Of a stretch of DNA of 64,000 nt, positions 1 to 64,000 are shown piece by piece. The stretch lies in assembly GCA_014686905.1 (NCBI GenBank), contig GCA_014686905.1_4093.1; one strand, written 5' to 3'. The notes under the pieces were generated by a model. The model was not told the DNA's origin. It ran no database searches and saw nothing but the letters and a program-made list of their open reading frames with translations. The first letter of the stretch is position 1; every line of letters begins with the position of its first letter. The position numbers and the translations under genes were made by a program. The stretch comes from a phage.

Positions 1-110
1 GAATCGATTCTAACGCATTAAACTGATTATCTGATACATCGCCCTAGCTGGTGGCGTTAAGGTCGTTAGAAAGCGATTGAGAGTGTTTAAAGTATTTTGC
101 AAAAAGTAAT

Positions 111-180
111 AAAAAGTACTTGCATGATTAAGAGATTAGCGTATAATGTTTTACATCGAAAGGGGAAACGGTTCTCCTTC
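111..180 (+). promoter_or_regulatory. sigma70-like early promoter plus 5' leader stem-loop
   Basis: A-rich upstream, TTGCAT ~120-125, TATAAT 142-147, imperfect hairpin 161-178. Confidence 0.5.
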
Positions 181-202
181 CAAATCAAAGGAATCAAAAC
201 AA

Positions 203-429
203 TGGCTATTATCATTACTCGCGTATCTGGTACTACTGGCAATTCTTCTACTGTTGCAGTCATTACTAACAAGGCAGGTGCGGAATTGCAAAATGCAATG
301 AATACCTGGGCCGTTAATGAGTTCGGTCAGTGGGCAAGTGTAGCATACATTGAAACCTATCAAGTGCCGACCATTAGTTTAACGGATCTTGGTGTGGAAC
401 GTATCCTTTGCTTGGATGAATTAAATTAA
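203..429 (+). CDS. hypothetical small early protein (75 aa)
   Basis: ATG 203 after promoter and leader; in-frame with track ORF 97..429. Confidence 0.6.
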
Positions 430-430
430 A

Positions 431-496
431 AAAGTACTTGCAAAGTAAATCGAATAAAGTATAATACATTACATCAAGGGGAGAAATGATTCTCCC
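431..496 (+). promoter_or_regulatory. sigma70-like early promoter plus 5' leader stem-loop
   Basis: TTGCAA 438-443, 16-bp spacer, TATAAT 460-465; hairpin GGGGAGAA/TTCTCCCC 477-496. Confidence 0.6.
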
Positions 497-514
497 CACT
501 ACAAGGAAACTAAT

Positions 515-658
515 ATGAAAACTTGTCAATGTGGTAAAAAATCTATTACTGGTTTAAAGCGGGGCGTTGCTCTTTGCCAGTACCATTATAATTTACAAGT
601 ATGGGGTAAAGAATGGGCCGACCAGGTGGAAGCAATTAAGAAAGCAAAAAGTAAGTAA
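515..658 (+). CDS. small Cys-rich protein (47 aa)
   Basis: RBS AAGGAA then ATG 515; MKTCQCGKK...; below track size cut-off. Confidence 0.45.
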   Translation: MKTCQCGKKSITGLKRGVALCQYHYNLQVWGKEWADQVEAIKKAKSK

Positions 659-664
659 AAATAT

Positions 665-706
665 TATCACAGTACTATTGACATAGTTTGATAGTACTGG
701 CATAAT
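665..706 (+). promoter_or_regulatory. sigma70-like promoter
   Basis: TTGACA 678-683, 17-bp spacer, CATAAT 701-706. Confidence 0.55.
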
Positions 707-747
707 AGATTTTATCAAGACAACATATTAATTTAAGGAATACTAAA

Positions 748-1071
748 ATGGCTAAAACTATCATTAACACCGTTTCCCTGGCTGCAATCCGTGCAATCAA
801 TGTTGACGGTAAACGTTGGACTGATTCATATGGCAATACTTATCATTCTTGTCATGTAAGCGTCGAACTGGATAACGGTTTGAATGTTCTGGCGGTTGAA
901 TCATTTACTTATGGCTATGAAGATGCATATCAACAAACGGCGTTAGATCTATTAAAGGAATCAGTAGACGGGCTTAATACTGATGAAACCTCCCTTACTC
1001 GTTTGTGCAATGATCTTAATATCCCGTTGCATTGTACTGTACAGAATGTTAAACGCAAAAAAGATCTTTAA
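748..1071 (+). CDS. hypothetical protein; paralog of 7149..7472
   Basis: RBS AAGGAA; shares RWTDS-GNTYHSC...FTYGY block with 7149..7472. Confidence 0.65.
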   Translation: MAKTIINTVSLAAIRAINVDGKRWTDSYGNTYHSCHVSVELDNGLNVLAVESFTYGYEDAYQQTALDLLKESVDGLNTDETSLTRLCNDLNIPLHCTVQNVKRKKDL

Positions 1072-1151
1072 TTAGCTTTACTTTATGCAGATACTTTGAT
1101 ATAGTGTCTGCATAGGGGAAAGAAATTAAATTAACTTAAGAGGATCGTATA

Positions 1152-1421
1152 ATGAAAAATATCAGTACTTTAATCGATGCAGGTACACATGTTCGGCGGT
1201 CTATGGTTGCAACCAGTACTACAAAACAAGTAGCGAGCGGTTATCTTGTATTTGTGCACGATGGTAAACTCCTGGAACGTTCAATCAATTTTGATGTTAA
1301 AAACAATTGCCGTTTTATTATCTTTAAGCGTGAACAATATAAAATTGATTTACCAGCAAAGCCCATTAGCGGGGCGTACAACGTGCAATCATTGTTTGAG
1401 CGTCAACCTTACACCTATTAA
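1152..1421 (+). CDS. hypothetical protein (89 aa)
   Basis: RBS AAGAGGA upstream of ATG 1152. Confidence 0.55.
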   Translation: MKNISTLIDAGTHVRRSMVATSTTKQVASGYLVFVHDGKLLERSINFDVKNNCRFIIFKREQYKIDLPAKPISGAYNVQSLFERQPYTY

Positions 1422-1472
1422 TCAAAACATCGTTAGCGGTCGATTTAGGCCGCTTGTATTGGGGATTATACC

Positions 1473-1643
1473 ATGAACGTTAATCAAGTACTGAATGAGA
1501 TCGAAAGCATCATTAAACCAATGAAACGCATTGATGCTATGTTAACACCGGAAGAATGCCGCCTTTATGAGCGTTACAGTGTGGAACAAGCCCAGGAAAT
1601 GGCCCGTATCCGTCCGGTTGCCAGTACTGATAAGGCGGCGTAA
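1473..1643 (+). CDS. hypothetical small protein (56 aa)
   Basis: ORF below track cut-off; stop overlaps next start. Confidence 0.35.
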   Translation: MNVNQVLNEIESIIKPMKRIDAMLTPEECRLYERYSVEQAQEMARIRPVASTDKAA

Positions 1644-1644
1644 T

Positions 1645-1854
1645 ATGCTTACTGTACAGGATAAGATCGACATCTTAAAGGTTAATATGTATGTGATTGA
1701 TGCCGTACCTGGTAAAGTATTTGCATACGATGATTCTAATCGCAGTCCGTTTTATTGCAGTCATGTAGTTGGATACGTGCCGTTGGCGTATGTTATAGAA
1801 AGAGTGGTTGATGCAGCATACAAACATTTTTTAGAAAATAATACTTGCAATTAG
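1645..1854 (+). CDS. hypothetical protein (69 aa)
   Basis: internal ATG of track ORF 1567..1854, directly after stop of 1473..1643. Confidence 0.45.
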   Translation: MLTVQDKIDILKVNMYVIDAVPGKVFAYDDSNRSPFYCSHVVGYVPLAYVIERVVDAAYKHFLENNTCN

Positions 1855-1903
1855 TTTTCAGTACTGTATAATGATTTACATCGAGAGCGGGAATAGTTCC
1901 CGC
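1841..1903 (+). promoter_or_regulatory. sigma70-like early promoter plus 5' leader stem-loop
   Basis: TTGCAA 1845-1850, 16-bp spacer, TG-n-TATAAT 1867-1872; hairpin GCGGGAA/TTCCCGC 1887-1903. Confidence 0.6.
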
Positions 1904-1924
1904 CTCACTTTTAAGGAATATGAA

Positions 1925-2071
1925 ATGAAAGCATCAAAAAAGAGTAATACTAAGAAAGCATGTTCACCTTTCGCTGGGGTATTCCCTTTACGTTTCGTTG
2001 ATGAAGTGGTTTCCTACCCGCCTGGCCTTACTCCTGAGATGGTAGAAAGTTTGCGTAAATCTAAAAAATAG
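1925..2071 (+). CDS. hypothetical small protein (48 aa)
   Basis: RBS AAGGAA 1913-1918, ATG 1925. Confidence 0.5.
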   Translation: MKASKKSNTKKACSPFAGVFPLRFVDEVVSYPPGLTPEMVESLRKSKK

Positions 2072-2134
2072 TACTTGCAATTAGTTTTTAAACGCGTATA
2101 ATGTTTTACATGAAGGGGAGAAATGATTCTCCCC
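2066..2134 (+). promoter_or_regulatory. sigma70-like early promoter plus 5' leader stem-loop
   Basis: TTGCAA 2075-2080, TATAAT 2097-2102; hairpin GGGGAGAA/TTCTCCCC 2115-2134. Confidence 0.6.
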
Positions 2135-2152
2135 AATAACAGGAGAAACAAA

Positions 2153-2305
2153 ATGAAACAATATAATGCTCGGTTTGATGTTACTATCGGTAACGGCAAA
2201 GGTCAATTCTCTTTCAGTACTCGCAAAAGTTATACAGAAAACTTCCTGCGTAATTGTGCACTGACCGCCGCTCAAATTAAACATTATTTTCAGGCTAAAA
2301 AATGA
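2153..2305 (+). CDS. hypothetical small protein (50 aa)
   Basis: RBS AGGAGA, ATG 2153 (internal Met of track ORF 2123..2305). Confidence 0.5.
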   Translation: MKQYNARFDVTIGNGKGQFSFSTRKSYTENFLRNCALTAAQIKHYFQAKK

Positions 2306-2391
2306 AATCATTTGCTTACTATAGTTCTGCGGTGATCGGTGCATTGATCGCGGCGTTGTTAGTAACCTATCTATTCTTTATGGTGATTTAA
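2302..2391 (+). CDS. putative hydrophobic micro-protein (29 aa)
   Basis: ATGA overlap with upstream stop; MKSFAYYSSAVIGALIAALLVTYLFFMVI looks like one TM helix. Confidence 0.3.
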   Translation: MKSFAYYSSAVIGALIAALLVTYLFFMVI

Positions 2392-2535
2392 ATGAATCCA
2401 ACAGGCTTAAATTATAAAAGTTGTTCGGCGTTTACGAAAGCAAATAAAGCGAATGCACGTAAAGCGAAAGTACAGGAGTACATCAAGCAAGGCATGACGC
2501 GAAAGGCGGCGATTCTAAAAGCTAAAAATAAATGA
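2392..2535 (+). CDS. putative basic micro-protein (47 aa)
   Basis: ATG immediately after previous stop; Lys/Ala-rich. Confidence 0.3.
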   Translation: MNPTGLNYKSCSAFTKANKANARKAKVQEYIKQGMTRKAAILKAKNK

Positions 2536-2640
2536 AAAAAGTGGTTGACTCCGGTCAGCCATTTTGCTATTATATATTCATTGAGAGATAGCTCACTAGC
2601 CCACAGGGTGCATAAGTGTATCTATTATATAAGTATTGAG
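2536..2640 (+). repeat. REP-A intergenic element copy 1 (terminator-like hairpin plus conserved box)
   Basis: hairpin TGGTTGAC-TCCG-GTCAGCCA then T-run; conserved GCCCACAGGGTGCATAAGTGTATCTATT. Confidence 0.6.
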
Positions 2641-2654
2641 TACTGAAAACTATT

Positions 2655-2725
2655 TTTAAAAAGTACTTGCAAACTATCTCAATAAGCGTATAATGTTTTA
2701 CATCGAAAGGGGAAACGGTTTCCCC
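2655..2725 (+). promoter_or_regulatory. sigma70-like early promoter plus 5' leader stem-loop
   Basis: TTGCAA 2667-2672, TATAAT 2689-2694; hairpin GGGGAAAC/GTTTCCCC 2709-2725. Confidence 0.6.
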
Positions 2726-2745
2726 TGGTAATAAGGAAACAAATC

Positions 2746-3087
2746 ATGACTATCTCAATTGCTCAATCTAACTTTGAAAATGAAATCATCGCCCAGGCAC
2801 TGCGTTTAAATGATGGTCGGGCCGAAATTAATTACGGTTTCAATTCAGGCGGTTGCGAAAACTATCAGTACTTTGTAACGGCTGATGGCGGTGTCCTGGG
2901 TATCAATACAGTTATTGTAAACATCCAAAAAATTAATTTCAATGATCCAGACGATAGCCAGTTTTACATCACTGGCGTAGACGTGAACTATGAGGATGAC
3001 TCACTAACTGATGATCACACTGGCGAGCGGTTAGAAAGTGCATACGGTGAAGATGATTATCAGTCCGGTCCAGAAGATTTCGAATAA
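2746..3087 (+). CDS. hypothetical acidic protein (113 aa)
   Basis: RBS AAGGAAAC, ATG 2746. Confidence 0.65.
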   Translation: MTISIAQSNFENEIIAQALRLNDGRAEINYGFNSGGCENYQYFVTADGGVLGINTVIVNIQKINFNDPDDSQFYITGVDVNYEDDSLTDDHTGERLESAYGEDDYQSGPEDFE

Positions 3088-3090
3088 TAT

Positions 3091-3160
3091 AAAAAATAGT
3101 TTGACAATAGATTATAGTACTGTATAATAGTTTACATCAAGGGGAGAAAAACTTCTCCCC
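3091..3160 (+). promoter_or_regulatory. sigma70-like early promoter plus 5' leader stem-loop
   Basis: TTGACA 3101-3106, TG-n-TATAAT 3123-3128; hairpin GGGGAGAA/TTCTCCCC 3141-3160. Confidence 0.65.
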
Positions 3161-3182
3161 ACTAACAGAGAGAGAAAACAAA

Positions 3183-3395
3183 ATGGCTAATATCCGGTCG
3201 AAATTAAAAAATGCAAAACAAGTTTTATTTTCAGATCATGAATACTTTAATAAAGATATTACAGGAGTTACAAGTATCAAGGAAGTAAAAGAAAAAACCG
3301 GCGTTTTGTGTGATGTGCGATTAGTTGGAACATTTGGGAATAACGTGCTATATCGCTGCGGTGATTACAATTTTACACTGACTATCATTAACTAA
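3183..3395 (+). CDS. hypothetical protein (70 aa)
   Basis: RBS AGAGAGAGAAAA, ATG 3183. Confidence 0.6.
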   Translation: MANIRSKLKNAKQVLFSDHEYFNKDITGVTSIKEVKEKTGVLCDVRLVGTFGNNVLYRCGDYNFTLTIIN

Positions 3396-3399
3396 AAAT

Positions 3400-3443
3400 A
3401 TTATCACAGTACTATTGACATAGTTTGATAGTACTGACATAAT
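3400..3443 (+). promoter_or_regulatory. sigma70-like promoter
   Basis: TTGACA 3415-3420, 17-bp spacer, CATAAT 3438-3443; near-duplicate of promoter at 665-706. Confidence 0.55.
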
Positions 3444-3478
3444 AACTTTTATCAACTACACTACTAAGGAATTAAAAA

Positions 3479-3658
3479 ATGGCTATCATCGCAAAAACTG
3501 AAATCGTTGGTCTGGATTCTATCATCATGACGTTTGAAGATCAAAAAGGTATGTATGTAGTTTCCTATGGTGATTATGTTCGGGAGTATGAAACGGTAGA
3601 CGAAGCCTTTGAAAGTTATATTCGCCAGGTGAATAAAGCATACGATGACTACCGCTAA
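3479..3658 (+). CDS. hypothetical small protein (59 aa)
   Basis: RBS AAGGAA, ATG 3479; below track cut-off. Confidence 0.5.
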   Translation: MAIIAKTEIVGLDSIIMTFEDQKGMYVVSYGDYVREYETVDEAFESYIRQVNKAYDDYR

Positions 3659-3669
3659 AATATATTACC

Positions 3670-3713
3670 AGTACTATTAAATCTATTGACAACGTTTGAT
3701 AGTACTGTATAAT
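3670..3713 (+). promoter_or_regulatory. sigma70-like promoter
   Basis: TTGACA 3686-3691, TG-n-TATAAT 3708-3713. Confidence 0.55.
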
Positions 3714-3757
3714 AAGTTTTATAAACAGTAGTTAACTTAACCTAAGAGAGAAACAAA

Positions 3758-3901
3758 ATGATCGCACTGGATTCATTCATCGACGCAGTACTGGCAAAAA
3801 CTGGCGAGGATCTGACCGCAGAACAATACGCGATGATCGAGCAATGTCAGCAAAACGGTAAATCGGTGAAAGATACTGTTAAGATTATCCGCAAGATGTA
3901 A
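3758..3901 (+). CDS. hypothetical small protein (47 aa)
   Basis: RBS AGAGAGAAA, ATG 3758; followed by hairpin. Confidence 0.45.
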   Translation: MIALDSFIDAVLAKTGEDLTAEQYAMIEQCQQNGKSVKDTVKIIRKM

Positions 3902-3907
3902 TATTAT

Positions 3908-3935
3908 AGCCCACTGGTTAACGCTGGTGGGCTTT
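3908..3935 (+). terminator. putative intrinsic terminator
   Basis: hairpin AGCCCAC...GTGGGCT then TTTAAT; weak U-tract. Confidence 0.4.
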
Positions 3936-4006
3936 AATCATTTACCCTATACAATGCCAGTACTAAACCGTTTATCTCATTAGAATGCGTTACAGGACGT
4001 TTAACA

Positions 4007-4204
4007 ATGATTAGCATGAAATCAGTACAAAAACAAATAGAAACATTATCAAAAATTAAACGTAAACAATACTCCTTAGAATATACAATCAATGGTAACT
4101 ATCATCTAATGAAAGAAAATAATTTTATAGTCATTGATGAATCATTGCAAATCATTAGTATAGTACTGAAAGCATTAATCAATGACAGAAAAAAATTAAA
4201 ATAA
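4007..4204 (+). CDS. hypothetical Lys-rich protein (65 aa)
   Basis: track ORF; weak RBS. Confidence 0.4.
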   Translation: MISMKSVQKQIETLSKIKRKQYSLEYTINGNYHLMKENNFIVIDESLQIISIVLKALINDRKKLK

Positions 4205-4294
4205 TTGTTGACATACAATGCCAGTACTGGCATAATACTTACATCAAGACGAGAACGTCACCAACCCATAGGGTGCACAAATGTAACTATATAA

Positions 4295-4370
4295 TATCGA
4301 TCAATAAATGATCAAAAAAGTACTGGATCAATTTAGCATAAGGCGTATAATTCTGATCAATTCTTGATCA
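4295..4370 (+). promoter_or_regulatory. cluster of five GATC sites (TGATCAA-type repeats) in a long non-coding leader
   Basis: GATC at 4299, 4310, 4326, 4355, 4366 inside the ~330-bp non-coding stretch 4205-4532. Confidence 0.35.
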
Positions 4371-4532
4371 AAGGCAATAAACGTAGTTGAAATTATATAG
4401 AAAGTACAAAGGCGTTACCATTCGTGGTAATGCTGGGGAATATGTAGTATCATACGGTTTGAATAAAATCAGTACTAGTAGTATAATCGTAGCATTGCAG
4501 TACTATAGTATTTTTATAATGAGGTTAAAATA

Positions 4533-4790
4533 ATGGCTGTAGGATTTGCGAAGGACGGGGCCGAACAAGACGAGATTAACGCAGTGATTCAGGCCGCCGT
4601 AAACCACGCTAGAAAGCAAATTAACGCACAAATAGAATCACTGGTACATTGCCTCGACTGCGGCGATATAATCCCTGAGAAACGACGCCAGGCCGTTAAG
4701 GGATGTAAGTACTGCATAACTTGCCAGGAGGATCATGATAGTACTTTTAAACGTCCCCCGCGTAATTGTTGGCATAGATCTATGAGATAA
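4533..4790 (+). CDS. TraR/DksA-family C4 zinc-finger protein
   Basis: CLDC-x17-CITC (CxxC-x17-CxxC) spacing typical of TraR/DksA; RBS GAGG. Confidence 0.6.
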   Translation: MAVGFAKDGAEQDEINAVIQAAVNHARKQINAQIESLVHCLDCGDIIPEKRRQAVKGCKYCITCQEDHDSTFKRPPRNCWHRSMR

Positions 4791-4825
4791 AAAGTATTGA
4801 CAGTACTGAAAGATAGTGTATAATA
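4791..4825 (+). promoter_or_regulatory. sigma70-like promoter
   Basis: TTGACA 4798-4803, 16-bp spacer, TG-n-TATAAT 4820-4825. Confidence 0.6.
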
Positions 4826-4853
4826 TTTTATATCTTAACTGAGGATTGAAATC

Positions 4854-5210
4854 ATGGGAATACAACATATCACGCGTACTACTGACAATGGCGAGATCAC
4901 TGGCTATCAAGTACAGGGCAAAGTAGCACAATTGCAGTACTGGTTTGTTAAACGTGGAATCATTGCACCGGATCTTGATTATGACCGTGTAGCGTTTATT
5001 GATTCTCTTTATGTTGATCCTGATAGTCGGGGCAATGGTGAAGGTAACGAATTAATGAATGCCTTTATTGATGCCGCCGATGATTCAGATTGTATCATTT
5101 TAGAATGCGATACAGGAGAAGATAACGCCTTCAATCTTAAAGAATGGTACGAAGGTTTCGGATTCGAGGTACTGATCGATAGTGAATATCCTATCATGAT
5201 TTTATCATAG
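4854..5210 (+). CDS. putative GNAT-like acetyltransferase (118 aa)
   Basis: RGNGEGNELMNAFIDAA resembles GNAT motif A; RBS GAGGA. Confidence 0.45.
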   Translation: MGIQHITRTTDNGEITGYQVQGKVAQLQYWFVKRGIIAPDLDYDRVAFIDSLYVDPDSRGNGEGNELMNAFIDAADDSDCIILECDTGEDNAFNLKEWYEGFGFEVLIDSEYPIMILS

Positions 5211-5216
5211 TACTTG

Positions 5217-5280
5217 CATTTAGTTTTCAGTACTGTTATAGTACTTACATCAAGGGGAAACATCTTCCCCTACTAAGAGG
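5217..5280 (+). promoter_or_regulatory. early promoter plus 5' leader stem-loop
   Basis: TTGCAT 5224-5229, weak -10 TTATAG; hairpin AGGGGAA/TTCCCCT 5262-5280. Confidence 0.5.
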
Positions 5281-5288
5281 AAATAAAA

Positions 5289-5477
5289 ATGGAAAACTTA
5301 TCAAGTATTTTAGTACAAGATGATTTCGGTAATCCTGGAAGTGCTATCATTGTTCGGGGTAATAAAGCAACGTTTGTTATTGCTGGTGGACCTGTACAGC
5401 GTAGCATTAAAAATAATGCTGTTACCATTAATAATGTACGCTATCGCTTAGATAAAGAATTGATTCATAAACTTTAA
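5289..5477 (+). CDS. hypothetical protein (62 aa)
   Basis: RBS AAGAGGAAA, ATG 5289. Confidence 0.6.
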   Translation: MENLSSILVQDDFGNPGSAIIVRGNKATFVIAGGPVQRSIKNNAVTINNVRYRLDKELIHKL

Positions 5478-5544
5478 AAAGTATTTGACAATAGATTATA
5501 GTACTGTATAATAAGTTACATGAAGGGGTGAAATGATTCTCCCC
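5476..5544 (+). promoter_or_regulatory. sigma70-like early promoter plus 5' leader stem-loop
   Basis: TTGACA 5485-5490, TG-n-TATAAT 5507-5512; hairpin 5525-5544. Confidence 0.6.
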
Positions 5545-5561
5545 ACTAAGAGGAAAGAAAA

Positions 5562-5774
5562 ATGCAAGGTCAACTAATCGTTCGTAAATGGTCTGATACT
5601 AACGAAAAACCGTGGGATGTACAATACATCGGACCGGATGGGGTATCACGTTATCAGCCTGGCGTAACGCATAGTACTGAGCAATTCGCAAACGCTCACC
5701 GCGAACGCCTGTTAGAATCCATGAAACAGGGATTCTGTGAAAAATTCATTCAAGATCATTGGCTGAAAGATTAA
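5562..5774 (+). CDS. hypothetical protein (70 aa)
   Basis: RBS AAGAGGAAAG, ATG 5562. Confidence 0.6.
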   Translation: MQGQLIVRKWSDTNEKPWDVQYIGPDGVSRYQPGVTHSTEQFANAHRERLLESMKQGFCEKFIQDHWLKD

Positions 5775-5791
5775 TATAAGGAGTACAGCTT

Positions 5792-5884
5792 ATGCAAATG
5801 AATCCGATGATTATTGTTTTAGCTGTACTTATGATCATTCATGCAATAGTAGAAGTATTAACGCAATCAGGAGTAATAAAATGA
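5792..5884 (+). CDS. putative hydrophobic micro-protein (30 aa)
   Basis: RBS AAGGAG, ATG 5792; MQMNPMIIVLAVLMIIHAIVEVL looks like one TM helix. Confidence 0.3.
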   Translation: MQMNPMIIVLAVLMIIHAIVEVLTQSGVIK

Positions 5885-6054
5885 TTCAAGTAGAATTATC
5901 AGTACTGAAAGATCTGTTTTATCGGTTAGGTACTACTGGCGAGTATCCTAAAAGTGATACCGCAAAACTTTTTGTATCACTCGACTTATGGCAACGCGAA
6001 CAATTAGTAATGTCCTGGCGTAAAGGTAAAGCAGATAGCGAGGTGAAAGCATGA
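5881..6054 (+). CDS. hypothetical small protein (57 aa)
   Basis: ATGA overlap with previous stop; RBS AGGAG. Confidence 0.4.
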   Translation: MIQVELSVLKDLFYRLGTTGEYPKSDTAKLFVSLDLWQREQLVMSWRKGKADSEVKA

Positions 6055-6200
6055 AAGAATTCTTATTCGAAGTAGTGTTTCAAGGTGTCGGTAGTAACCA
6101 ACTGATTCGCTCAAGTGGTTACAATGTTAACCAGGCATGGAATAACATTAAACAAATGTACCCGAACGCTATCACCTATCGCAACCCGAAACAAGTTTAA
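6051..6200 (+). CDS. hypothetical small protein (49 aa)
   Basis: ATGA overlap; RBS GAGG. Confidence 0.4.
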   Translation: MKEFLFEVVFQGVGSNQLIRSSGYNVNQAWNNIKQMYPNAITYRNPKQV

Positions 6201-6210
6201 AAATAATTGA

Positions 6211-6300
6211 AAAAGGGATTGACTCCGGTCAGTCCCTTTGCTATTATATACGCATAGAAACAAATCAGCCCACAGGGTGCATAAATGTATCTATTGTTTG
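6211..6300 (+). repeat. REP-A intergenic element copy 2
   Basis: hairpin GGGATTGAC-TCCG-GTCAGTCCC 6215-6236 flanked by A-run and T-run; conserved GCCCACAGGGTGCATAAATGTATCTATT. Confidence 0.6.
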
Positions 6301-6330
6301 CTGGTGGCTAGTACTGAAAACTATTTTTAA

Positions 6331-6366
6331 AAAAGTACTTGCATTGTACTTAGAATCAAGTATAAT
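6331..6366 (+). promoter_or_regulatory. sigma70-like promoter upstream of ORF-free structured leader
   Basis: TTGCAT 6339-6344, 16-bp spacer, TATAAT 6361-6366; downstream hairpin ACGGGG...CCCCGT 6380-6405. Confidence 0.5.
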
Positions 6367-6447
6367 GTTTTACATCAGGACGGGGAACGAAACAAGTAAC
6401 CCCGTTAAGTAGTCCAGGAGTAAGACATAAGAAAACCTCCCCTGATA

Positions 6448-6482
6448 AAATAGTTTGACAATAGAAAGTAAACGAGTATAAT
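6448..6482 (+). promoter_or_regulatory. sigma70-like promoter
   Basis: TTGACA 6455-6460, TATAAT 6477-6482. Confidence 0.55.
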
Positions 6483-6515
6483 ACTTACATCAACCACTGA
6501 TAAGGAAACATTAAA

Positions 6516-6791
6516 ATGCGGATTCTACTGACAGCTAACGAAATCGAACAAGTACTGACTACTAACCTGGAAGACTGGAAACGTGAAGCAGATATCCAGG
6601 CGGTTCAACGGCTTAACGATGAGTTAACGCCGGATGACTTAAGCAAGATTGTAGATCCTCAATTCTACGAAGATATCCACGACACCGCGTTAAGCGTCGA
6701 GGATGTACTAGATAAGCACTACATTGATATTGATTTGCAGGTTTACGGTCGTAAAAACTTTATCACTATTCACGACATTTACAATAATTAA
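6516..6791 (+). CDS. hypothetical acidic protein (91 aa)
   Basis: RBS AAGGAAAC, ATG 6516. Confidence 0.65.
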   Translation: MRILLTANEIEQVLTTNLEDWKREADIQAVQRLNDELTPDDLSKIVDPQFYEDIHDTALSVEDVLDKHYIDIDLQVYGRKNFITIHDIYNN

Positions 6792-6855
6792 GTATTGACA
6801 AAGTATCTTAGTACTGTATAATAGTTTACATCGAGAGGGGGAATGGTTCCCCTCC
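6789..6855 (+). promoter_or_regulatory. sigma70-like early promoter plus 5' leader stem-loop
   Basis: TTGACA 6795-6800, TG-n-TATAAT 6817-6822; hairpin GAGGGGGAA/TTCCCCTC 6835-6855. Confidence 0.65.
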
Positions 6856-6877
6856 TAACAAAGAGAGAGAAATAAAA

Positions 6878-7060
6878 ATGGCTAAATGCACTATCTGTAA
6901 GAAAGAAATCGTATTAGTTCCAAGTGCCCGTGAACGTGCCGCTCGGTTCGGTGGCAAACCGTCAGACTATACAAAAATGTTTACTGTCCATGCAGCTTGC
7001 CAGGTAGCAAAACGTTCACAAGAAAGCGTAGAATTAATGCGTAAACTTTCCAAAAAATAA
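6878..7060 (+). CDS. hypothetical protein with CxxC pair (60 aa)
   Basis: RBS AGAGAGAGAAA, ATG 6878; CTICKK...HAAC. Confidence 0.55.
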   Translation: MAKCTICKKEIVLVPSARERAARFGGKPSDYTKMFTVHAACQVAKRSQESVELMRKLSKK

Positions 7061-7126
7061 GTATTGACAAAGTATCTTAGTACTGTATAATAGTTTACAT
7101 CAAGTGAGGGGAAACGGTTCCCCTCC
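7060..7126 (+). promoter_or_regulatory. sigma70-like early promoter plus 5' leader stem-loop
   Basis: TTGACA 7064-7069, TG-n-TATAAT 7086-7091; hairpin GAGGGGAAAC/GTTCCCCTC 7106-7126. Confidence 0.65.
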
Positions 7127-7148
7127 TAACAAAGAGAGAGAAATAAAA

Positions 7149-7472
7149 ATGGCTATGATCCTTGCCCAGAAAGTAGAACTGAAAATTGTAACCTCCTTTG
7201 ACATTAAAGTTAATCGGTGGACTGATTCACACGGCAATACTTACCACTCTTGCTACGTGTCTGCGTTAATTGGTGATCGTTGGGAAGACCTGGGACATGA
7301 AACCTTTACATACGGTTACGGCACACAAGGCGAATACACGGGCTTGGAGATCATTAAAGAAACCGTTATAGGTTTCAACCCGAAAGAAAAAGTTATTCAC
7401 CGCATCGAAAAAGAGATTAACAAAGAAATAACAGTTCGATACAACGATGTAAAACGTAAGAAAGACATGTAA
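7149..7472 (+). CDS. hypothetical protein; paralog of 748..1071
   Basis: ATG 7149 after RBS; shares RWTDSHGNTYHSC...FTYGYG block. Confidence 0.65.
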   Translation: MAMILAQKVELKIVTSFDIKVNRWTDSHGNTYHSCYVSALIGDRWEDLGHETFTYGYGTQGEYTGLEIIKETVIGFNPKEKVIHRIEKEINKEITVRYNDVKRKKDM

Positions 7473-7495
7473 TAGAATCCATTTAAAGTACTATT

Positions 7496-7534
7496 TGACA
7501 TTGCCCAGATAGTACTTTATAATAGACTCTAACT
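7496..7534 (+). promoter_or_regulatory. sigma70-like promoter
   Basis: TTGACA 7506-7511, 17-bp spacer, TATAAT 7529-7534. Confidence 0.55.
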
Positions 7535-7567
7535 TGTAGTACTAACTCAACTAATAGGATGTATACC

Positions 7568-7963
7568 ATGATTACTAAATTCTACGCTACCCGTGAAGCT
7601 GCCCGTATTGTTGCACGCGAGGAAGGAGCAGCATTTAAAGACATGGGCAAAGATGCACCGAAAGGTCAACGCTGGGCCGTACAGTTCAAAGAAATCTCTG
7701 ATATCGTGAATTCACCGGAGCCAGTACTAACAGCAGCAGAACTAAAACGAGCGGATTTACTGGCGGCAGTACTTAACGCACAAGATGAATTTATCGCTGA
7801 TTCTGATATCAAAGTACAGACAAACCATACCGCTTGGACTCACGCGGATCACCTGGCAAACCTTAAGCGTCCAAGTGAACTGGTACGCAACCAGAAAGAG
7901 ATCCGACACGACCGTAAGGGTAATCGTGTAACAGTATACAGTAAACGCCGCCAGGTTATCTAA
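7568..7963 (+). CDS. hypothetical protein (131 aa)
   Basis: RBS AGGA then ATG 7568 (alternative start 7559). Confidence 0.6.
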   Translation: MITKFYATREAARIVAREEGAAFKDMGKDAPKGQRWAVQFKEISDIVNSPEPVLTAAELKRADLLAAVLNAQDEFIADSDIKVQTNHTAWTHADHLANLKRPSELVRNQKEIRHDRKGNRVTVYSKRRQVI

Positions 7964-7985
7964 TAACTTGCAGTACTAACAACAC

Positions 7986-8010
7986 GGCGGGATCAGTTCC
8001 CGCCTTTTTT
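7986..8010 (+). terminator. rho-independent terminator
   Basis: hairpin GGCGGGA-TCAG-TTCCCGCC followed by TTTTTT. Confidence 0.75.
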
Positions 8011-8025
8011 ATAGGATAAACTAAA

Positions 8026-8280
8026 ATGATTAAGGTACAACTATCTAAAGATAATATCTTGCGGGTACACTATAAAGCACCACAGAGAATCATCACAAAG
8101 GCCGTACAGCTTGCTAATGAGTTTATTAATGGTAACCTATTACCAAGGAAGTTAAGCAACGGAAAACTGCGTGTAATCGATGTAGACACTAACAACAGAA
8201 TAGTAATAGAGAACACAGGAAAGATAAACCTTTATGAACATCAACAATATAATAAGAAAATAAAACTAATATCACGTTGA
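8026..8280 (+). CDS. hypothetical basic protein (84 aa)
   Basis: RBS AGGA, ATG 8026. Confidence 0.55.
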   Translation: MIKVQLSKDNILRVHYKAPQRIITKAVQLANEFINGNLLPRKLSNGKLRVIDVDTNNRIVIENTGKINLYEHQQYNKKIKLISR

Positions 8281-8333
8281 CAGTACTCAATTGTTTTAGT
8301 ATTATGTACACATACCAACACGGGAGAAACAAA

Positions 8334-8552
8334 ATGAAATTATCTAAAATCGAAAAGAAAACTATTGATGAAGCAGTTAAGCACGGTTATACCTTTCGTA
8401 ATGATTCACATTTTACCAATTTTCAACAAGGCCAAAGGACTATTAAAAAACTAATTGACAAAGGTTTATTAGTTAAAGTAGATAACGGTAACGGCATTGA
8501 GTATCAGCCAACCCAAGACGCATTATCTTTAAAGAAATATGCAATTATCTAA
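8334..8552 (+). CDS. hypothetical protein (72 aa)
   Basis: ATG 8334 after duplicated promoter/RBS block 8277-8333. Confidence 0.5.
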   Translation: MKLSKIEKKTIDEAVKHGYTFRNDSHFTNFQQGQRTIKKLIDKGLLVKVDNGNGIEYQPTQDALSLKKYAII

Positions 8553-8609
8553 TTGACAGTACTCAAATGTTTTAGTACTATATGTACATACCAACACGGG
8601 GGAAACAAA

Positions 8610-8852
8610 ATGATTACTTTAGAAAAACGTATCAAAGAAACTACATCGCTGGTGGAACTGTTAACAGTACTGAAATGTAAAACAACACCATTCAGCACGC
8701 CGGACTTTATTAATATGGTTGATGTTAATGGTCGCTATCGTATCACGGTCGAACAAGGAGCGGCGAAAGTATTCAGTACTAAAAACACTAAGGAAGTGAT
8801 CCACGCCGTTAATGTTAAAAAAGTAGTTGCAATTGATAGTAAAGTACTGTAA
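8610..8852 (+). CDS. hypothetical protein (80 aa)
   Basis: ATG 8610 after duplicated promoter/RBS block 8553-8609. Confidence 0.5.
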   Translation: MITLEKRIKETTSLVELLTVLKCKTTPFSTPDFINMVDVNGRYRITVEQGAAKVFSTKNTKEVIHAVNVKKVVAIDSKVL

Positions 8853-8883
8853 TATAGTTTCATTAACTCAAGGAGAACATGCA

Positions 8884-9468: not shown

Positions 9469-9477
9469 AAAAGATTA

Positions 9478-9575
9478 AAAAAGGGATTGACTTCGGTCAG
9501 TCCCTTTGCTATTATATATTCATTGAGAGATAGCTCACTGACCCACAGGGTGCATAAATGTATCTATTATATAAG
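9478..9575 (+). repeat. REP-A intergenic element copy 3
   Basis: hairpin GGGATTGAC-TTCG-GTCAGTCCC 9483-9504 then T-run; conserved box CCCACAGGGTGCATAAATGTATCTATT. Confidence 0.6.
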
Positions 9576-9600
9576 TATTCAGTACTGAAAACTATTTTTA

Positions 9601-9671
9601 AAAAAGTACTTGCATTGTACTTAGAATCAAGTATAATGTTTTATATCGAGAGGGGGAAATGGTTCTCCCTC
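9601..9671 (+). promoter_or_regulatory. sigma70-like early promoter plus 5' leader stem-loop
   Basis: TTGCAT 9610-9615, TATAAT 9632-9637; hairpin 9648-9671. Confidence 0.6.
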
Positions 9672-9691
9672 AAAGAATAAGGAATAAAATC

Positions 9692-9913: not shown

Positions 9914-9975
9914 GTATTGACAAAGTATCTTAGTACTGTATAATAGTTTACATCAAGGGGAGAATAGTTCTCCCC
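9911..9975 (+). promoter_or_regulatory. sigma70-like early promoter plus 5' leader stem-loop
   Basis: TTGACA 9917-9922, TG-n-TATAAT 9939-9944; hairpin GGGGAGAA/TTCTCCCC 9957-9975. Confidence 0.65.
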
Positions 9976-60685: not shown

Positions 60686-60949
60686 ATGAATATTCAAGAT
60701 AGATTACAATTACTGTACACACTTGAACAGGCTGCTTATGATCTTGTTCGAAAAATCTCAGATGAACTACCTAAAGGAACTAAAGTTCGTGTACGTGAGA
60801 TGAATTATTTTTCTGGAGTAATTGAAGAACAAGTACTAACAGTGAATAAAGTAACATACTATGAATCTGAGTTGTCTATTCAGTGTGAATCTGATGATGG
60901 ATTAATATCATATTATGGAACTGATGTAGATATAGAGGTAATAAAATGA
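60686..60949 (+). CDS. hypothetical protein (87 aa)
   Basis: ATG 60686 (internal Met of track ORF 60641..60949). Confidence 0.45.
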   Translation: MNIQDRLQLLYTLEQAAYDLVRKISDELPKGTKVRVREMNYFSGVIEEQVLTVNKVTYYESELSIQCESDDGLISYYGTDVDIEVIK

Positions 60950-62088
60950 CCCTTTTGCAAATATATGAAGATTTAATGCACTTATGTAATACAAACGATG
61001 CATTCTTTTATGTGGATCATAAAAGTCCTGCTGGTGGCACGTATCGTGTATTCAGTTATCGTCTAGCATCATACACTGATTTCATGCAACCAAATGCGTT
61101 GGAAACCCGTGGCTCTATGTGGGAAATTGATGAAGAAGGTGAAATGATACGTTGTGCAGCACGTACAATGAAAAAGTTCTTCAATGCTTACGAGAATCCT
61201 GCTACAATGTTCCCTGCTAACACCACATGCGATGACATTGCGGTAGTGATGCCTAAGTTGGATGGTTCGATTATCAGTACTTACCGTGATAATGATGGTG
61301 AGATTCGTTGTAAATCACATACTGCATTGTATTCTGACCATGCGATTAACAGTACTCGACTTATTAACGAGAACCAGAATTTGTATCAGTACATCGACGA
61401 AGCGGAACGTTTAGGTTACACAGTTAATATGGAGTATACAAGCCCAGAGTACCGAATTGTATTACCATATCAGGTAGAACAACTGTTTGTACTGAACGTT
61501 CGTCATCGTGTGAGTGGTGAGTTGCTATGTGGTAAAGCACTACGTGATAAGTTTCCATGTCTTGCACAGTACAGTACTAATATGACTGGAAAAGATATTC
61601 ATCACACTTTTCCGGTACGAAATACCTTCCGTGAAAGCGTGGAGGAAGTTCATAAAATGCTTGATATTGAGGGTTTTGTGTGCATCCTAAATAATGGGAC
61701 AATGTGTAAAATAAAGACTGACTGGTACAGTTCATTACATCTTACAAAAGATAGTATTATTATTGATTCTCATTTATATGAAGCAGTATTAAATGGTTCA
61801 AGTGATGATTTAAAACAATTGTTCAGTACTGATGAATATGCTATGCAAAAGATATTAAGAATGGAACAATTGGTATTTTCGTGCTATAATGCATTACAAG
61901 ATGAAGTAGAAAGCTTCGTCAAGGAACACAAGCACTTGGAGCGAAAGGAATTCGCAATGAAGGTTCAGGAGTGTTTAACTAATGAACTGAATCGTCAGGG
62001 CTTGGCCTTTGCAATGTATAACAATAAGAAAGTTGATTACAAAGAGACTCTTATAAAATACATGAAAATTGTACTAAAGGATTTTTAG
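60946..62088 (+). CDS. rnlA: RNA ligase 1 (T4 RnlA-like)
   Basis: 380 aa; T4 RnlA-like N-terminus (FFYVDHKSPAGGTYRVFSYRLASYTDF) and nucleotidyltransferase KxDG motif (MPKLDGSII). Confidence 0.85.
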   Translation: MTLLQIYEDLMHLCNTNDAFFYVDHKSPAGGTYRVFSYRLASYTDFMQPNALETRGSMWEIDEEGEMIRCAARTMKKFFNAYENPATMFPANTTCDDIAVVMPKLDGSIISTYRDNDGEIRCKSHTALYSDHAINSTRLINENQNLYQYIDEAERLGYTVNMEYTSPEYRIVLPYQVEQLFVLNVRHRVSGELLCGKALRDKFPCLAQYSTNMTGKDIHHTFPVRNTFRESVEEVHKMLDIEGFVCILNNGTMCKIKTDWYSSLHLTKDSIIIDSHLYEAVLNGSSDDLKQLFSTDEYAMQKILRMEQLVFSCYNALQDEVESFVKEHKHLERKEFAMKVQECLTNELNRQGLAFAMYNNKKVDYKETLIKYMKIVLKDF

Positions 62089-62118
62089 TACTATCTAGCC
62101 TAAGCACAAGGAGAAGTG

Positions 62119-62373
62119 ATGGCTAAACCTAAGTATAAAAATGACGGTTCCCTTTCTCCGACTGAGTTCAGGAAAATACAAGAAGAAATCGATGAATTAC
62201 AGCACAAACGCTCAATGAAAGGTGTGAAGATAAGTAAGAAACGAATCGAGAATACCTTCGGATGTAGTAGTACTGAATACAAGAAGAAAAGGAAACCAAA
62301 AGGTGTTAAGCCGAGAATACATGATGTAACTCGCTATACATCGAAACGTGAAAATAAATTTGACCCACTATAA
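62119..62373 (+). CDS. hypothetical basic protein (84 aa)
   Basis: RBS AAGGAGAAG; lies where alc/pseT.x genes sit in T4. Confidence 0.5.
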   Translation: MAKPKYKNDGSLSPTEFRKIQEEIDELQHKRSMKGVKISKKRIENTFGCSSTEYKKKRKPKGVKPRIHDVTRYTSKRENKFDPL

Positions 62374-62382
62374 GGAGTTCAT

Positions 62383-62613
62383 ATGAAAGTTGAAGTTCAG
62401 CATAGTATTGTTCAGGATATGTCAGTAGTTAAATTTCTTTCCTTGAAAGATTATTTCAGATGTATCAAGTTCCTAGAAGAATCTCAATTACAGTGGACCC
62501 CATTAAAGTACAGTTCATCCAATGATACTGCTAGTATTCGTTGTGATGAATCTGTACTTGTGAAAATCTCCAAACGATTTGGAGTAGGAAAAGTTAATGA
62601 GCACAGTAAGTGA
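62383..62613 (+). CDS. hypothetical protein (76 aa)
   Basis: RBS AAGGAG. Confidence 0.5.
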   Translation: MKVEVQHSIVQDMSVVKFLSLKDYFRCIKFLEESQLQWTPLKYSSSNDTASIRCDESVLVKISKRFGVGKVNEHSK

Positions 62614-62851
62614 CCTAAAATACTACAACAAAACTGCGGATACGTTTATTACTCATTTATATGAAGAATTTAGTCGTATCCGTAAGGAATATACAGGTAA
62701 ATGTATTTTATATAGTTCTTATCATAGTGGTGGAATTGAAAGTGCTTACATTACTAAAGTGAAGTTTTCTGATGACTATCAATTACTCTTTGAATTAGAT
62801 GATTGTTTCGTTATTGAAGCTTGTTTGATAGTGGATGTTCTAGATAATTGA
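62597..62851 (+). CDS. hypothetical protein (84 aa)
   Basis: track ORF. Confidence 0.5.
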   Translation: MSTVSDLKYYNKTADTFITHLYEEFSRIRKEYTGKCILYSSYHSGGIESAYITKVKFSDDYQLLFELDDCFVIEACLIVDVLDN

Positions 62852-62857
62852 GGACAT

Positions 62858-63172
62858 ATGAATAAAGAACTTGCATTTGAGAGGATCGAAAAGTTAAAGT
62901 ACATTGAAAAGGAACTAATAGAATCTGTCGAATCAATGGTCGAAGATTACGTTTTCGATTTTAAGAAAACATTGATTGGATGTAAAGTTAAATGCTGGGA
63001 TCATACAATCAGAGAATGGTTCAGTACTATAATTCTTGATGTTAAAGTATCGCGTACTGCTATTGGTAATTTAGTAAATGGTGAATGCTTTGTATACACT
63101 GAATACAATAACGGAACAAGAAACCTTTCAAGAGGATGGCACAAACTCGAAGATGTAGAATTCATTGAGTAA
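62858..63172 (+). CDS. hypothetical protein (104 aa)
   Basis: RBS GAGGA. Confidence 0.5.
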   Translation: MNKELAFERIEKLKYIEKELIESVESMVEDYVFDFKKTLIGCKVKCWDHTIREWFSTIILDVKVSRTAIGNLVNGECFVYTEYNNGTRNLSRGWHKLEDVEFIE

Positions 63173-63183
63173 CAAGGAGTAAT

Positions 63184-64000
63184 AATGCCAACTATCACAC
63201 TAACAGTTGGATTGCCTGGGTGTGGTAAAACTACATGGGCAGTGCAAGAGATTAAAAAAGCCAAATCCAAGACTATCAACATCAACCGTGATGATATTCG
63301 TGAATCTATGGCTGGGTCACATGATGCTTACAAATTCAACGATGCTAATGAGCAGTACGTAGATAATTTACAGTTCAGTGCAGCAAATTCAGCAGCAGAG
63401 AATGGTTGGAACATCATAGTATCCGATACAAACCTTAAACCACATTTCCGTAATCTCTGGAAAGTATGGGCTACAGATAATGGTTATGATTACAAAGAAA
63501 AGAACTTCTATGATGATTTTGTACCTAATGAAGACCGTGGTGCAGATGTTCATGAATTCTTTAAGATTAAAGAGTTCGTAAAACTTTGTAAGAAATATAA
63601 CCTCCAGCGTGAGCGTTCAGTACCAGATGATATCATTGACAAAATGGCAGATACGTACTATTATAGTAAAGCATTACACATTGGTTACTATGGTAATTCA
63701 CGCGAAGCTGCTATCATCGTTGATATCGATGGAACTCTTGCTCATAAATGGGGTCGTAATCCTTACGATGAAAGTACTGTTCTTCAGGATACACCTGATG
63801 AAGAAGTTATTTTGTCTATTATCGCTGAAGCAGTTTTTCATAAACGCAAGATTATCGTCATGAGTGGGCGTACTGAAGGGTGTCGTGCTGATACCGAACA
63901 GTGGCTTAAGAATTGGGGTGTTCCTTACGATGCATTGTTTATGCGAGATATCGATGATAAACGTCCTGATGATGTTGTAAAATTCGACCTGTACATGAAA
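63184..64000 (+). CDS. pseT: polynucleotide 5'-kinase/3'-phosphatase (T4 PseT-like), 3' end beyond window
   Basis: Walker A GLPGCGKTT at N-terminus, HAD phosphatase motif DIDGTLA downstream; RBS AAGGAG; not in track because ORF runs off window end. Confidence 0.85.

Follow-up and report, generated by a model that had tools for sequence, protein, structure and literature searches.

The cyanobacterial HIP1 palindrome (GCGATCGC) is hyper-abundant, occurs in all reading frames, is conserved and non-randomly distributed, co-occurs with orphan methyltransferases and has no known function (PMC5861425, PMC4390886). Here we analyse a stretch of phage DNA of 64,000 nucleotides (NCBI GenBank assembly GCA_014686905.1, contig GCA_014686905.1_4093.1), referred to at its full length as the window, in which the palindrome AGTACT is the most frequent hexamer and for which HIP1 appears to be the closest analogue. 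Like HIP1 and the alternate cyanobacterial palindromes, AGTACT is a hyper-abundant, short and perfect palindrome that is found in all reading frames as well as in intergenic DNA, and is conserved beyond background, and an orphan methyltransferase, whose specificity for AGTACT is only putative, is likewise encoded in the genome. In contrast to HIP1, AGTACT is viral, AT-rich, shorter (6 bp, weakly 8-12 bp) and denser (about 2.5-6 per kb), occupies fixed promoter positions and co-occurs with a near-total loss of other palindromes. With respect to the large-scale pattern, HIP1 shows a periodicity of 10-90 kb, while AGTACT was measured for the evenness of its spacing (coefficient of variation, CV, 0.76-0.87).

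The stoperators of cluster A mycobacteriophages such as L5 are asymmetric 13-14-mers that are oriented with transcription, number about 25-35 per genome and lie mostly in intergenic DNA. As in L5, the phage genome analysed here is peppered with one site, here putatively protein-bound, that is present in promoters and inside transcription units; however, AGTACT is symmetric, amounts to roughly 760 sites in 300 kb and lies mostly inside genes. Chi, the DNA uptake sequences (PMC1939737) and the GATC site of Dam, whose spacing is constrained, similarly represent a genome-wide excess of a short word, which in those cases is read by a machine, is selected for coverage rather than at the single site and can separate own from foreign DNA. 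Chi and the uptake sequences are asymmetric and depend on orientation, in contrast to the symmetric AGTACT, and GATC is not enriched in the window (0.59x). Finally, AGTACT is identical to the target of the ScaI restriction-modification system and has the typical type II recognition format. However, phages avoid restriction sites, whereas here at least 22 other palindromic hexamers are purged and AGTACT is enriched 7-13-fold. No second amino-methyltransferase motif was found in 625 called proteins, and a ScaI-like gene was found neither among the annotations of the Escherichia coli phage G17 nor by motif scan, no dedicated search for it having been made.

Abundance of AGTACT and null models

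A window-wide excess of AGTACT had been claimed in a preliminary description made from the letters alone, and this excess is in fact stronger than was stated there. The window, with a G+C content of 33.7%, contains 225 copies of AGTACT, 49 of them as CAGTACTG, compared to 21.4 copies expected from mononucleotide composition. Shuffled sequences in which dinucleotides were preserved yielded 16.6±4.1 copies (maximum 27), and Markov models of order 1, 2 and 3 predicted 16.9, 41.5 and 89 copies, respectively; the value of the maximal-order model (192) is circular, because the motif itself enriches AGTAC and GTACT. By their flanks, the 225 sites group into 201 different contexts, so that only about 24 of them can be attributed to duplicated contexts. 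Duplication is thus of minor weight, and paralogy or duplicated promoters were rejected as the source of the excess.

About 165 genes were called in the window by our own heuristic caller (625 proteins called in total), all of them on the + strand except for one short, weak call. Coding DNA carries 175 sites (3.1 per kb; mononucleotide expectation 18.7), while non-coding DNA carries 47 sites (5.9 per kb) where 2.65 are expected, an 18-fold enrichment. Shuffling of synonymous codons within each gene, which fixes every protein and therefore every dipeptide and also each gene's codon usage, gave 55.5±6.1 coding sites (maximum 76). The enrichment thus survives a null of the very kind under which, according to the preliminary description, it might have disappeared, and codon usage and favoured dipeptides are ruled out as its cause. 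Moreover, it amounts to about threefold in each of the three reading frames (78, 39 and 58 sites observed versus 24, 15 and 17 after the shuffle). The proteins and their codon usage nevertheless carry part of the excess, as the same shuffle still retained 55 sites compared to 19 expected from composition; Ser is most often encoded by AGT and Thr by ACT, and several paralogue families are present in the window. Ser-Thr dipeptides are encoded by AGT-ACT in 55% of cases versus 16% expected, and the dipeptides Ser-Thr (1.46x), Val-Leu (1.36x) and Gln-Tyr (1.46x) are themselves in excess, with the control Thr-Ser at 0.99x. The motif pressure extends to codon pairs and protein sequence. The earlier suggestion that coding sites are dense partly through Ser-Thr and Gln-Tyr codon pairs in family motifs needs correction, since most coding sites do not belong to family motifs.

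AGT makes up 34-43% of Ser codons, and phage G17 encodes a tRNA-Ser with the unusual anticodon ACU, an exact match to the AGU codon (L002, 29693-29784), as well as a tRNA-Thr(UGU) (L002, 27934-28007). This tRNA set may be adapted to the codon bias imposed by the motif.

Strand symmetry, conservation and spacing of the sites

In genes (319 kb of sequence read in the sense orientation), half-site words show the same enrichment on both strands, with CAGTAC at 8.59x in sense and 8.68x in antisense. This equal enrichment indicates a signal of double-stranded DNA and not of mRNA, and a motif acting at the mRNA level is thereby ruled out. The flanks are symmetric as well: the base at position -1 is C in 47% and the base at position +1 is G in 45% of the sites, with T-rich and A-rich outer flanks, respectively, which extends the palindrome to about TTCAGTACTGAA.

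Site conservation was tested on one genome pair, the window and phage EC.P1 (84% identity over 44 kb of alignment). Ninety-eight of the 125 aligned AGTACT sites (78%) are intact in EC.P1, compared to 46% of same-phase hexamers and 53% of same-phase hexamers within 150 bp. This additional conservation was seen in all three phases, non-coding sites were kept in 12 of 12 cases, and the turnover of sites was balanced, with 27 sites found only in the window and 30 only in EC.P1.

Furthermore, AGTACT is spaced more evenly than random placement would produce. The CV of its spacing was between 0.76 and 0.87 in five separate regions (p <0.0002 to 0.03), lower than for any other of the 40 most frequent hexamers (median 1.17), and the longest gaps were shorter than in random placements, for example 2,103 bp versus a simulated median of 3,231 bp; in core genes the longest gap is 2.1 kb. 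Even spacing together with short maximal gaps suggests that selection appears to act on coverage. The 18 words that differ from AGTACT by one mismatch occur at 0.38x to 2.1x, most of them at 1 or above, with none of the depletion pattern of a repair drive. In summary, AGTACT is a double-stranded DNA signal maintained by selection, for which neither base composition nor codon usage nor gene families can account.

Occurrence in RaK2-like phages and loss of other palindromes

The window is 97-99% identical to the Asteriusvirus E. coli jumbo phages G17, SHEFM2K, Sharanji, 121Q and PBECO4 (98-99% in the case of both G17 and Sharanji), and Asteriusvirus belongs to the RaK2-like group, myoviruses of roughly 350 kb. 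G17, of which 300 kb were examined, served as a proxy for the source genome, while other genera were sampled at 20-50 kb each and E. coli at 100 kb. In G17 AGTACT is again the commonest hexamer (758 copies versus 102 expected) and CAGTACTG the commonest octamer, and the sites are present in both gene orientations and in core genes. All 10-kb bins are enriched relative to the 3.3 sites expected, with a density that falls from the early region (50-65 sites) toward the core (10-21 sites in replication and structural genes). Over G17 and the window, AGTACT occurs about once per 300-500 bp. The samples from other genomes gave the following counts.

RaK2 (Klebsiella), 50 kb: AGTACT 119, expected 16.9; GCGC 0
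XbC2 (Mimasvirus), 41.6 kb: AGTACT 95, expected 13.7; GCGC 0
Serratia phage BF (Eneladusvirus), 40.5 kb: AGTACT 176, expected 13.5; GCGC 0
IMG/VR contig of 366 kb, 21.6 kb sampled: AGTACT 36, expected 7.0; GCGC 0
PA5oct (Pseudomonas), 50 kb: AGTACT 3, expected 16.6; GCGC 47 (normal)
E. coli K-12, 2 x 50 kb: AGTACT 3 + 3, expected 11.6 (first sample); GCGC 342 (first sample)

The excess is thus found in Asteriusvirus, RaK2, Mimasvirus and Eneladusvirus, while nine metagenomic contigs whose large terminase is 43-45% identical showed no AGTACT excess. With 6 copies per 100 kb in E. coli, the phage is about 50-60 times denser in AGTACT. Each sampled genome with the excess is devoid of GCGC (0 versus 259 expected in the 300 kb of G17) and contains no copy of 22-30 of the 64 palindromic hexamers; among the absent ones are CGTACG and GGTACC, while AGTACT is enriched. 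AGTACT is the sole strongly enriched palindrome in genomes otherwise purged of palindromes. The missing restriction sites may account for the resistance of RaK2 to restriction enzymes, which has been credited to methylation (PMC3622015). No paper linking AGTACT with jumbo phages was found in the literature searched, and the genome papers on RaK2, CBB and Sharanji are silent on the motif.

Promoter positions in the early region

Four regions of the window differ in their content of AGTACT.

1-13300, + strand: early region of very small genes, in or adjoining the terminal repeat; 82 AGTACT, 6.2 per kb
13321-19677, + strand: tandem array of paralogues of about 70 amino acids (aa), comprising 26 of the family's 27 members; AGTACT nearly absent
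20908-28545, + strand: block of about 20 genes that is free of ACT; AGTACT absent, 41 AGTACA (5.4 per kb)
28616-64000: accessory-gene region with paralogue families, RNA ligase and methyltransferase; 126 sites, about 3.6 per kb, CV 0.82

The location of the early region in or near the terminal repeat is based on the place of the window on G17, at about 343-358 kb on the minus strand. Nearly each small gene of positions 1-13300 has a near-consensus sigma70 promoter, and about 7 nucleotides (nt) downstream of the -10 box there is a G(n)-loop-C(n) hairpin (for example GGGGAGAAATGATTCTCCCC), with several almost identical copies. Of the sigma70-like promoters in the early part of both the window and G17, scored as consensus matches and not as mapped transcription starts, about 75% bear at least one AGTACT between -60 and +30. 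The start positions of AGTACT peak at -7/-8, -17/-18, -27 and -30/-31 from the first base of the -10 hexamer. In the commonest class (-7/-8) the arrangement is AGTACT-G-TATAAT, in which AGTACT provides the TG of an extended -10, in the -17/-18 class it is TTGAC-AGTACT, and in the -27 and -30/-31 classes AGTACT overlaps or abuts the upstream edge of the -35; AGTAC-TTGCA and AGTACT-A-TTGACA are likewise sharp layouts. The following promoters were read directly.

433-443, + strand: site over the upstream edge of the -35, AGTAC-TTGCAA (class -27)
671-698, + strand: two sites flanking the -35, with AGTACT at 671-676, A, TTGACA at 678-683, a 9-nt spacer, AGTACT at 693-698, GG and CATAAT at 701-706
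3116-3128, + strand: site abutting the -10, AGTACT-G-TATAAT (class -7/-8)
4797-4807, + strand: site over the downstream edge of the -35, TTGAC-AGTACT (class -17/-18)

The two-site layout of 671-698 was seen again at 3408/3430, 3670/3701, 7487/7511 and 11113/11135. Both the position peaks and the directly read promoters agree with the earlier claim that AGTACT sits at fixed places near the -35 and the -10, and these places overlap promoter elements, as those of an operator do. In G17 the non-coding density of AGTACT is 9.5 per kb in the early region versus 1.55 per kb in the core, where the coding density is 1.97 per kb, which indicates two layers: a baseline of about 2 per kb throughout the genome and, on top of it, a concentration in the early part, where promoters are numerous. 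The PeSL cassettes of T4-type phages (PMC2839356, PMC4122927) are similar in that a sigma70 promoter and a hairpin lie between small accessory genes of a plastic region; in contrast to these cassettes, the palindrome is here part of the -35 and -10 edges. Neither AGTACT nor GTAC was found in the text of PMC4122927.

Two further elements were observed in the early region. A recurrent element of about 70-100 nt, at about 2560-2620, 6215-6285, 9483-9557 and 11743-11810, consists of a hairpin with a -35-like TTGAC (GGGATTGACTCCGGTCAGTCCC), followed by TTTGCTATTATATA and a conserved piece CCCACAGGGTGCA; it has no match in Rfam and might represent either a small RNA or a unit of terminator and promoter. 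In addition, the E. coli Chi sequence GCTGGTGG is present in 9 copies on the + strand versus 0.14 expected, eight of them in the early region and all nine co-directional with the genes, which suggests that Chi enrichment shields the entering DNA end against RecBCD.

47, 3923, 5382, 6300, 8648, 10055, 11632, 11855 and 61030, + strand: copies of Chi
52387, - strand: copy of Chi

Site-free stretches and a block without ACT

AGTACT is enriched in most of the window, as the term window-wide had implied, except for two stretches without a single site, at 13,093-18,464 and 20,910-28,615. The first stretch corresponds to the paralogue array, in which TGTACT recurs at the homologous CTG-TAC-T position. 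A foreign origin of both stretches was considered and rejected, since both are confined to Asteriusvirus genomes and are likewise free of the avoided palindromes. The array at 13321-19677 diverges fast between strains (80-96% identity).

The second stretch holds a block (20,908-28,545) in which the trinucleotide ACT does not occur once on the + (sense) strand, compared to 124 copies expected from composition and 119.8±8.5 expected if the block's proteins were encoded with the codon usage that the window shows outside the block. AGT is present on the same strand at 169 copies versus 135 expected, so that the avoidance of ACT is strand-specific. ACT is missing in all three frames, and its use as a Thr codon drops from 43% of Thr codons outside the block to 0% inside. 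No trinucleotide has a comparable void in the remainder of the window or across 300 kb of G17. The same block was found in four relatives, all of them Asteriusvirus phages.

Window: 7,639 bp, 41 AGTACA
G17: 7,649 bp, 41 AGTACA
EC.P1: 8,676 bp, 43 AGTACA
CMSTMSU: 8,461 bp, 47 AGTACA
JNE01: 4,447 bp, 28 AGTACA
Position in the sampled stretches of the relatives: L007; L010, 10446-19120; L026, 3653-12112; L027, 6728-11173

One block protein that was tested is only 28-55% identical between the window and the other phages bearing the block, and none of the 1,374 positions that differ between the blocks of the window and EC.P1 creates an ACT. No ACT-free block was found in the syntenic region of RaK2 or at the sampled locus of phage BF. 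Inside the block AGTACA replaces AGTACT at equal density, 15x over expectation, while AGTACC occurs twice and AGTACG once; the pressure for the palindrome thus persists under the ban on ACT and takes the nearest allowed A/T variant.

The block's proteins have no recognisable function in Pfam or PHROGs. The absence of ACT is complete, strand-specific and independent of frame in five phages, as would be expected of mRNAs freed from the recognition word of a ribonuclease, and the most natural explanation is that the block's mRNAs are likely immune to an ACU-cutting ribonuclease. As an alternative, the block could lack primase sites on one strand at the DNA level. It is known that mRNAs without ACA resist MazF, on which the engineered 'single-protein production' trick rests, and by analogy the ACU-free cassette would be a natural counterpart of this system. 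Known enterobacterial enzymes of the MazF family include MazF-SEA and PemK-xf, which cut U^ACU and U^ACG (PMC10864209), and ChpB, which cuts U^AC (PMC8546651). These enzymes do not match a plain ACU, because the block does contain UAC, ACG and ACA, and no host or phage ribonuclease with plain ACU specificity was found among the MazF relatives compared. The cassette suggests that a layer of the conflict between host and phage, or of the timing of phage genes, is based on a ribonuclease; we found no description of such a layer.

Candidate readers and the accessory region

A motif scan for amino-methyltransferases in the 625 called proteins returned a single match.

53134-53655, + strand: predicted N6-adenine-type DNA methyltransferase of 173 aa with an NPPY motif (G17_00508, TIGR01712-type)
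53134-54185: this methyltransferase and, directly downstream, a cytidylyltransferase-like gene

The enzyme is annotated in G17 as a phage N6-adenine methyltransferase, and RaK2 and Serratia phage BF also carry the gene pair. The enzymes of Asteriusvirus and phage BF share only 41% identity, while the motif AGTACT is unchanged. G17 also encodes a Dcm-like enzyme.

The remainder of the accessory region consists of families of 150-200-aa proteins from 28.6 to 48.9 kb; beyond 48.9 kb its genes include an RNA ligase, the small DNA methyltransferase and the beginning of a gene for polynucleotide kinase. For most of the region's proteins neither Pfam nor PHROGs gave a function, and among the 20 window proteins searched against both the RNA ligase was the only one named; no candidate operator-binding protein was found. 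A segment of 680 nt at 51892-52571 has no convincing open reading frame and contains G/C runs and hairpin-like segments, for which no Rfam family matches; the Rfam search of the window as a whole gave no match.

What AGTACT may do

AGTACT shows an excess under nulls that preserve coding, is present in all frames and in non-coding DNA and is conserved beyond background, and with these properties it (or about TTCAGTACTGAA) would qualify as a highly iterated palindrome of the RaK2-like jumbo-phage clade. A recognition site of a dimeric protein that binds or modifies DNA would look like the pattern described above. We therefore tentatively propose, at a likelihood that comes near to an even chance while staying below it, that AGTACT is the double-stranded DNA recognition site of a clade-specific, phage-encoded homodimeric reader; from the pattern of sites we infer that a protein reads AGTACT, that the phage encodes it and what its binding achieves. 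The reader could be either a protein that binds DNA or one that methylates it, and the evenly distributed sites would mark or coat the phage DNA. As the host is 50-60 times sparser in AGTACT, the density of sites could let phage processes discriminate phage from host DNA; protection, organisation and the choice of template for transcription or replication are candidate processes. In the early region a reader bound to the sites abutting the -35 and -10 might also act as an operator-binding regulator of early transcription. Neither hydroxymethyl or glucosyl cytosine genes nor the nucleus-shell gene chmA have been reported for such a phage (PMC3622015, PMC11895373).

Several observations weigh against this proposal. 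The earlier idea of a recognition site is supported as far as a selected, symmetric signal in double-stranded DNA is concerned, but no reader protein of AGTACT was found among the annotations or in the motif scan of the called proteins, and no annotated DNA-binding protein has a matching distribution. A contiguous palindrome of 6-8 bp is unusual for helix-turn-helix dimers, and more than 1,000 sites per genome far exceed the need of any regulator known to us. The only NPPY methyltransferase found belongs to a family that is mostly GATC-specific. The fixed promoter positions could partly be due to the common descent of the promoter cassettes, and the AGTACA sites of the ACT-free block are barely more conserved than background (17 of 36 versus 39%), so that selection seems to act on site density more than on each site. 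Finally, bisulfite data on RaK2 show CpG methylation, not methylation at AGTACT (PMC3622015).

A related explanation, which we regard as unlikely, holds that AGTACT is a HIP1-like methyl mark, set by an orphan phage methyltransferase for which the NPPY enzyme at 53134-53655 would be the candidate. The function would then reside in the mark, for example in strand or self discrimination of limited range as in the case of Dam and GATC; this explanation overlaps with that of a phage-encoded reader and predicts a modified base. It is consistent with the cyanobacterial iterated palindromes, which co-occur with orphan methyltransferases recognising them (PMC4390886), with the conservation of the methyltransferase and cytidylyltransferase-like pair in Asteriusvirus, RaK2 and Eneladusvirus, and with the even spacing and short maximum gaps, which suit a mark of limited range. 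However, the motif has stayed the same while the enzyme itself has diverged to 41% identity, the bisulfite work on RaK2 reported CpG methylation only (PMC3622015), and the one-mismatch neighbours of AGTACT (0.38x-2.1x) show neither the HIP1-like bias at the first and last position nor any other effect of position.

A replication-based alternative appears rather improbable. T4 gp61 starts at 5'-GCT-3' with a cryptic 3' T, one base away from ACT, and a gp61-like primase of the present phages might start at 5'-ACT-3' and make 5-nt primers (pppGUACU) on 5'-AGTAC-T-3'. The palindrome would then serve both strands, regular Okazaki priming would give even spacing, and the ACT-free block would be unprimeable on one strand. 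By inference only, the hexamer would correspond to one cryptic base plus a five-base primer, as in T4 primers; primases such as T4 gp61 and T7 gp4 initiate on single-stranded template at a site with a cryptic 3' base. The even spacing with a longest core-gene gap of 2.1 kb and the strand-symmetric enrichment agree with such a primase, which would also tie AGTACT to the strand-specific loss of exactly ACT, and the trait is absent from PA5oct, whose replisome is more distant. In contrast, no known primase requires the full hexamer, the promoter positions and the fivefold higher non-coding density of the early region are left unexplained, and no reason is known to forbid priming on one strand of a gene cassette. 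The preference at position 6 in the block (A, C and G at 41:2:1) better fits a minor-groove read-out of A/T.

It is less probable again that AGTACT has no function and results either from biased repair or gene conversion of a very-short-patch-like type, or from a mutational sink in which double deamination of CpG turns AGCGCT into AGTACT and GCGC into GTAC. GCGC and AGCGCT are indeed wholly absent, GTAC and AGTACT being their transition products on both strands, and biased repair, which has been proposed as a model for HIP1 (PMC4390886), would also raise the apparent conservation. Nevertheless, a repair drive was rejected because the neighbouring one-mismatch words are not depleted, and deamination of AGCGCT or GCGC because the source sites would fall far short: per 300 kb, no more than about 28 AGCGCT and about 259 GCGC would be expected, compared to an excess of about 650 AGTACT and about 1,000 GTAC. 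A pure sink, moreover, does not slow the loss of sites, in contrast to the conservation seen, and neither the absence of CGTACG and GGTACC beside an enriched AGTACT nor the even spacing and fixed promoter positions would be expected from a mutational process.

Binding of a host factor, SlmA of the E. coli nucleoid occlusion system, through which replicating phage DNA would block cell division, is very unlikely. The 12-bp SlmA site GTGAGTACTCAC centres on AGTACT, so that the core hexamer is identical, and strongly requires G1, T2 and a purine at position 3 (PMC3020112). In addition, E. coli infected by Sharanji is filamentous, with DNA that spreads through the cell without a phage nucleus (PMC11895373), and the trait is present in enterobacterial phages and not in the Pseudomonas phage PA5oct. 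However, the required flanks are depleted in the phage (11 of 983 per side where 26.5 are expected, and in no case on both sides), G is with 7% the least frequent base at position -1, and no SlmA homologue is encoded by the phage. An SlmA site was rejected on the basis of the depleted flanks and the missing homologue; the filamentation could have many other causes, although it leaves the idea standing in a weak form. An artefact of coding, whether from codon usage, from preferred dipeptides, from the motifs of paralogous families or from a signal in the mRNA, has next to no likelihood in view of the 175 sites observed versus 55.5±6.1 with proteins fixed, the three enriched frames, the 18-fold non-coding enrichment, the 201 independent contexts, the equality of sense and antisense strands and an enrichment that is equal in conserved core genes and in four genera.

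Significance for jumbo phages

A wider interpretation joins the purge of GCGC and most GC-rich palindromes, the evenly spaced and factor-read AGTACT and the ACU-free cassette into one sequence-coded identity of the phage, in place of heavy DNA modification or a nucleus, neither of which has been reported for these jumbo phages. In its entirety this interpretation is doubtful, but if it were true, a dedicated factor would recognise, protect or organise phage DNA by the density of AGTACT, while the mRNAs of the cassette would outlive a ribonuclease, of host or phage origin, that is specific for ACU and degrades every other message. In practical terms, the AGTACT motif together with the absence of GCGC provides a simple signature by which RaK2-like jumbo phages can be spotted in metagenomes. 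If a phage factor indeed reads AGTACT, a 12-bp pull-down bait, a single candidate methyltransferase and recodable coliphages (G17, Sharanji, 121Q, PBECO4) would provide handles for experiments, and these phages would represent a tractable, fast-evolving model for the unexplained HIP1 phenomenon. They would then be an example of a virus with unmodified DNA that labels its chromosome by sequence alone.

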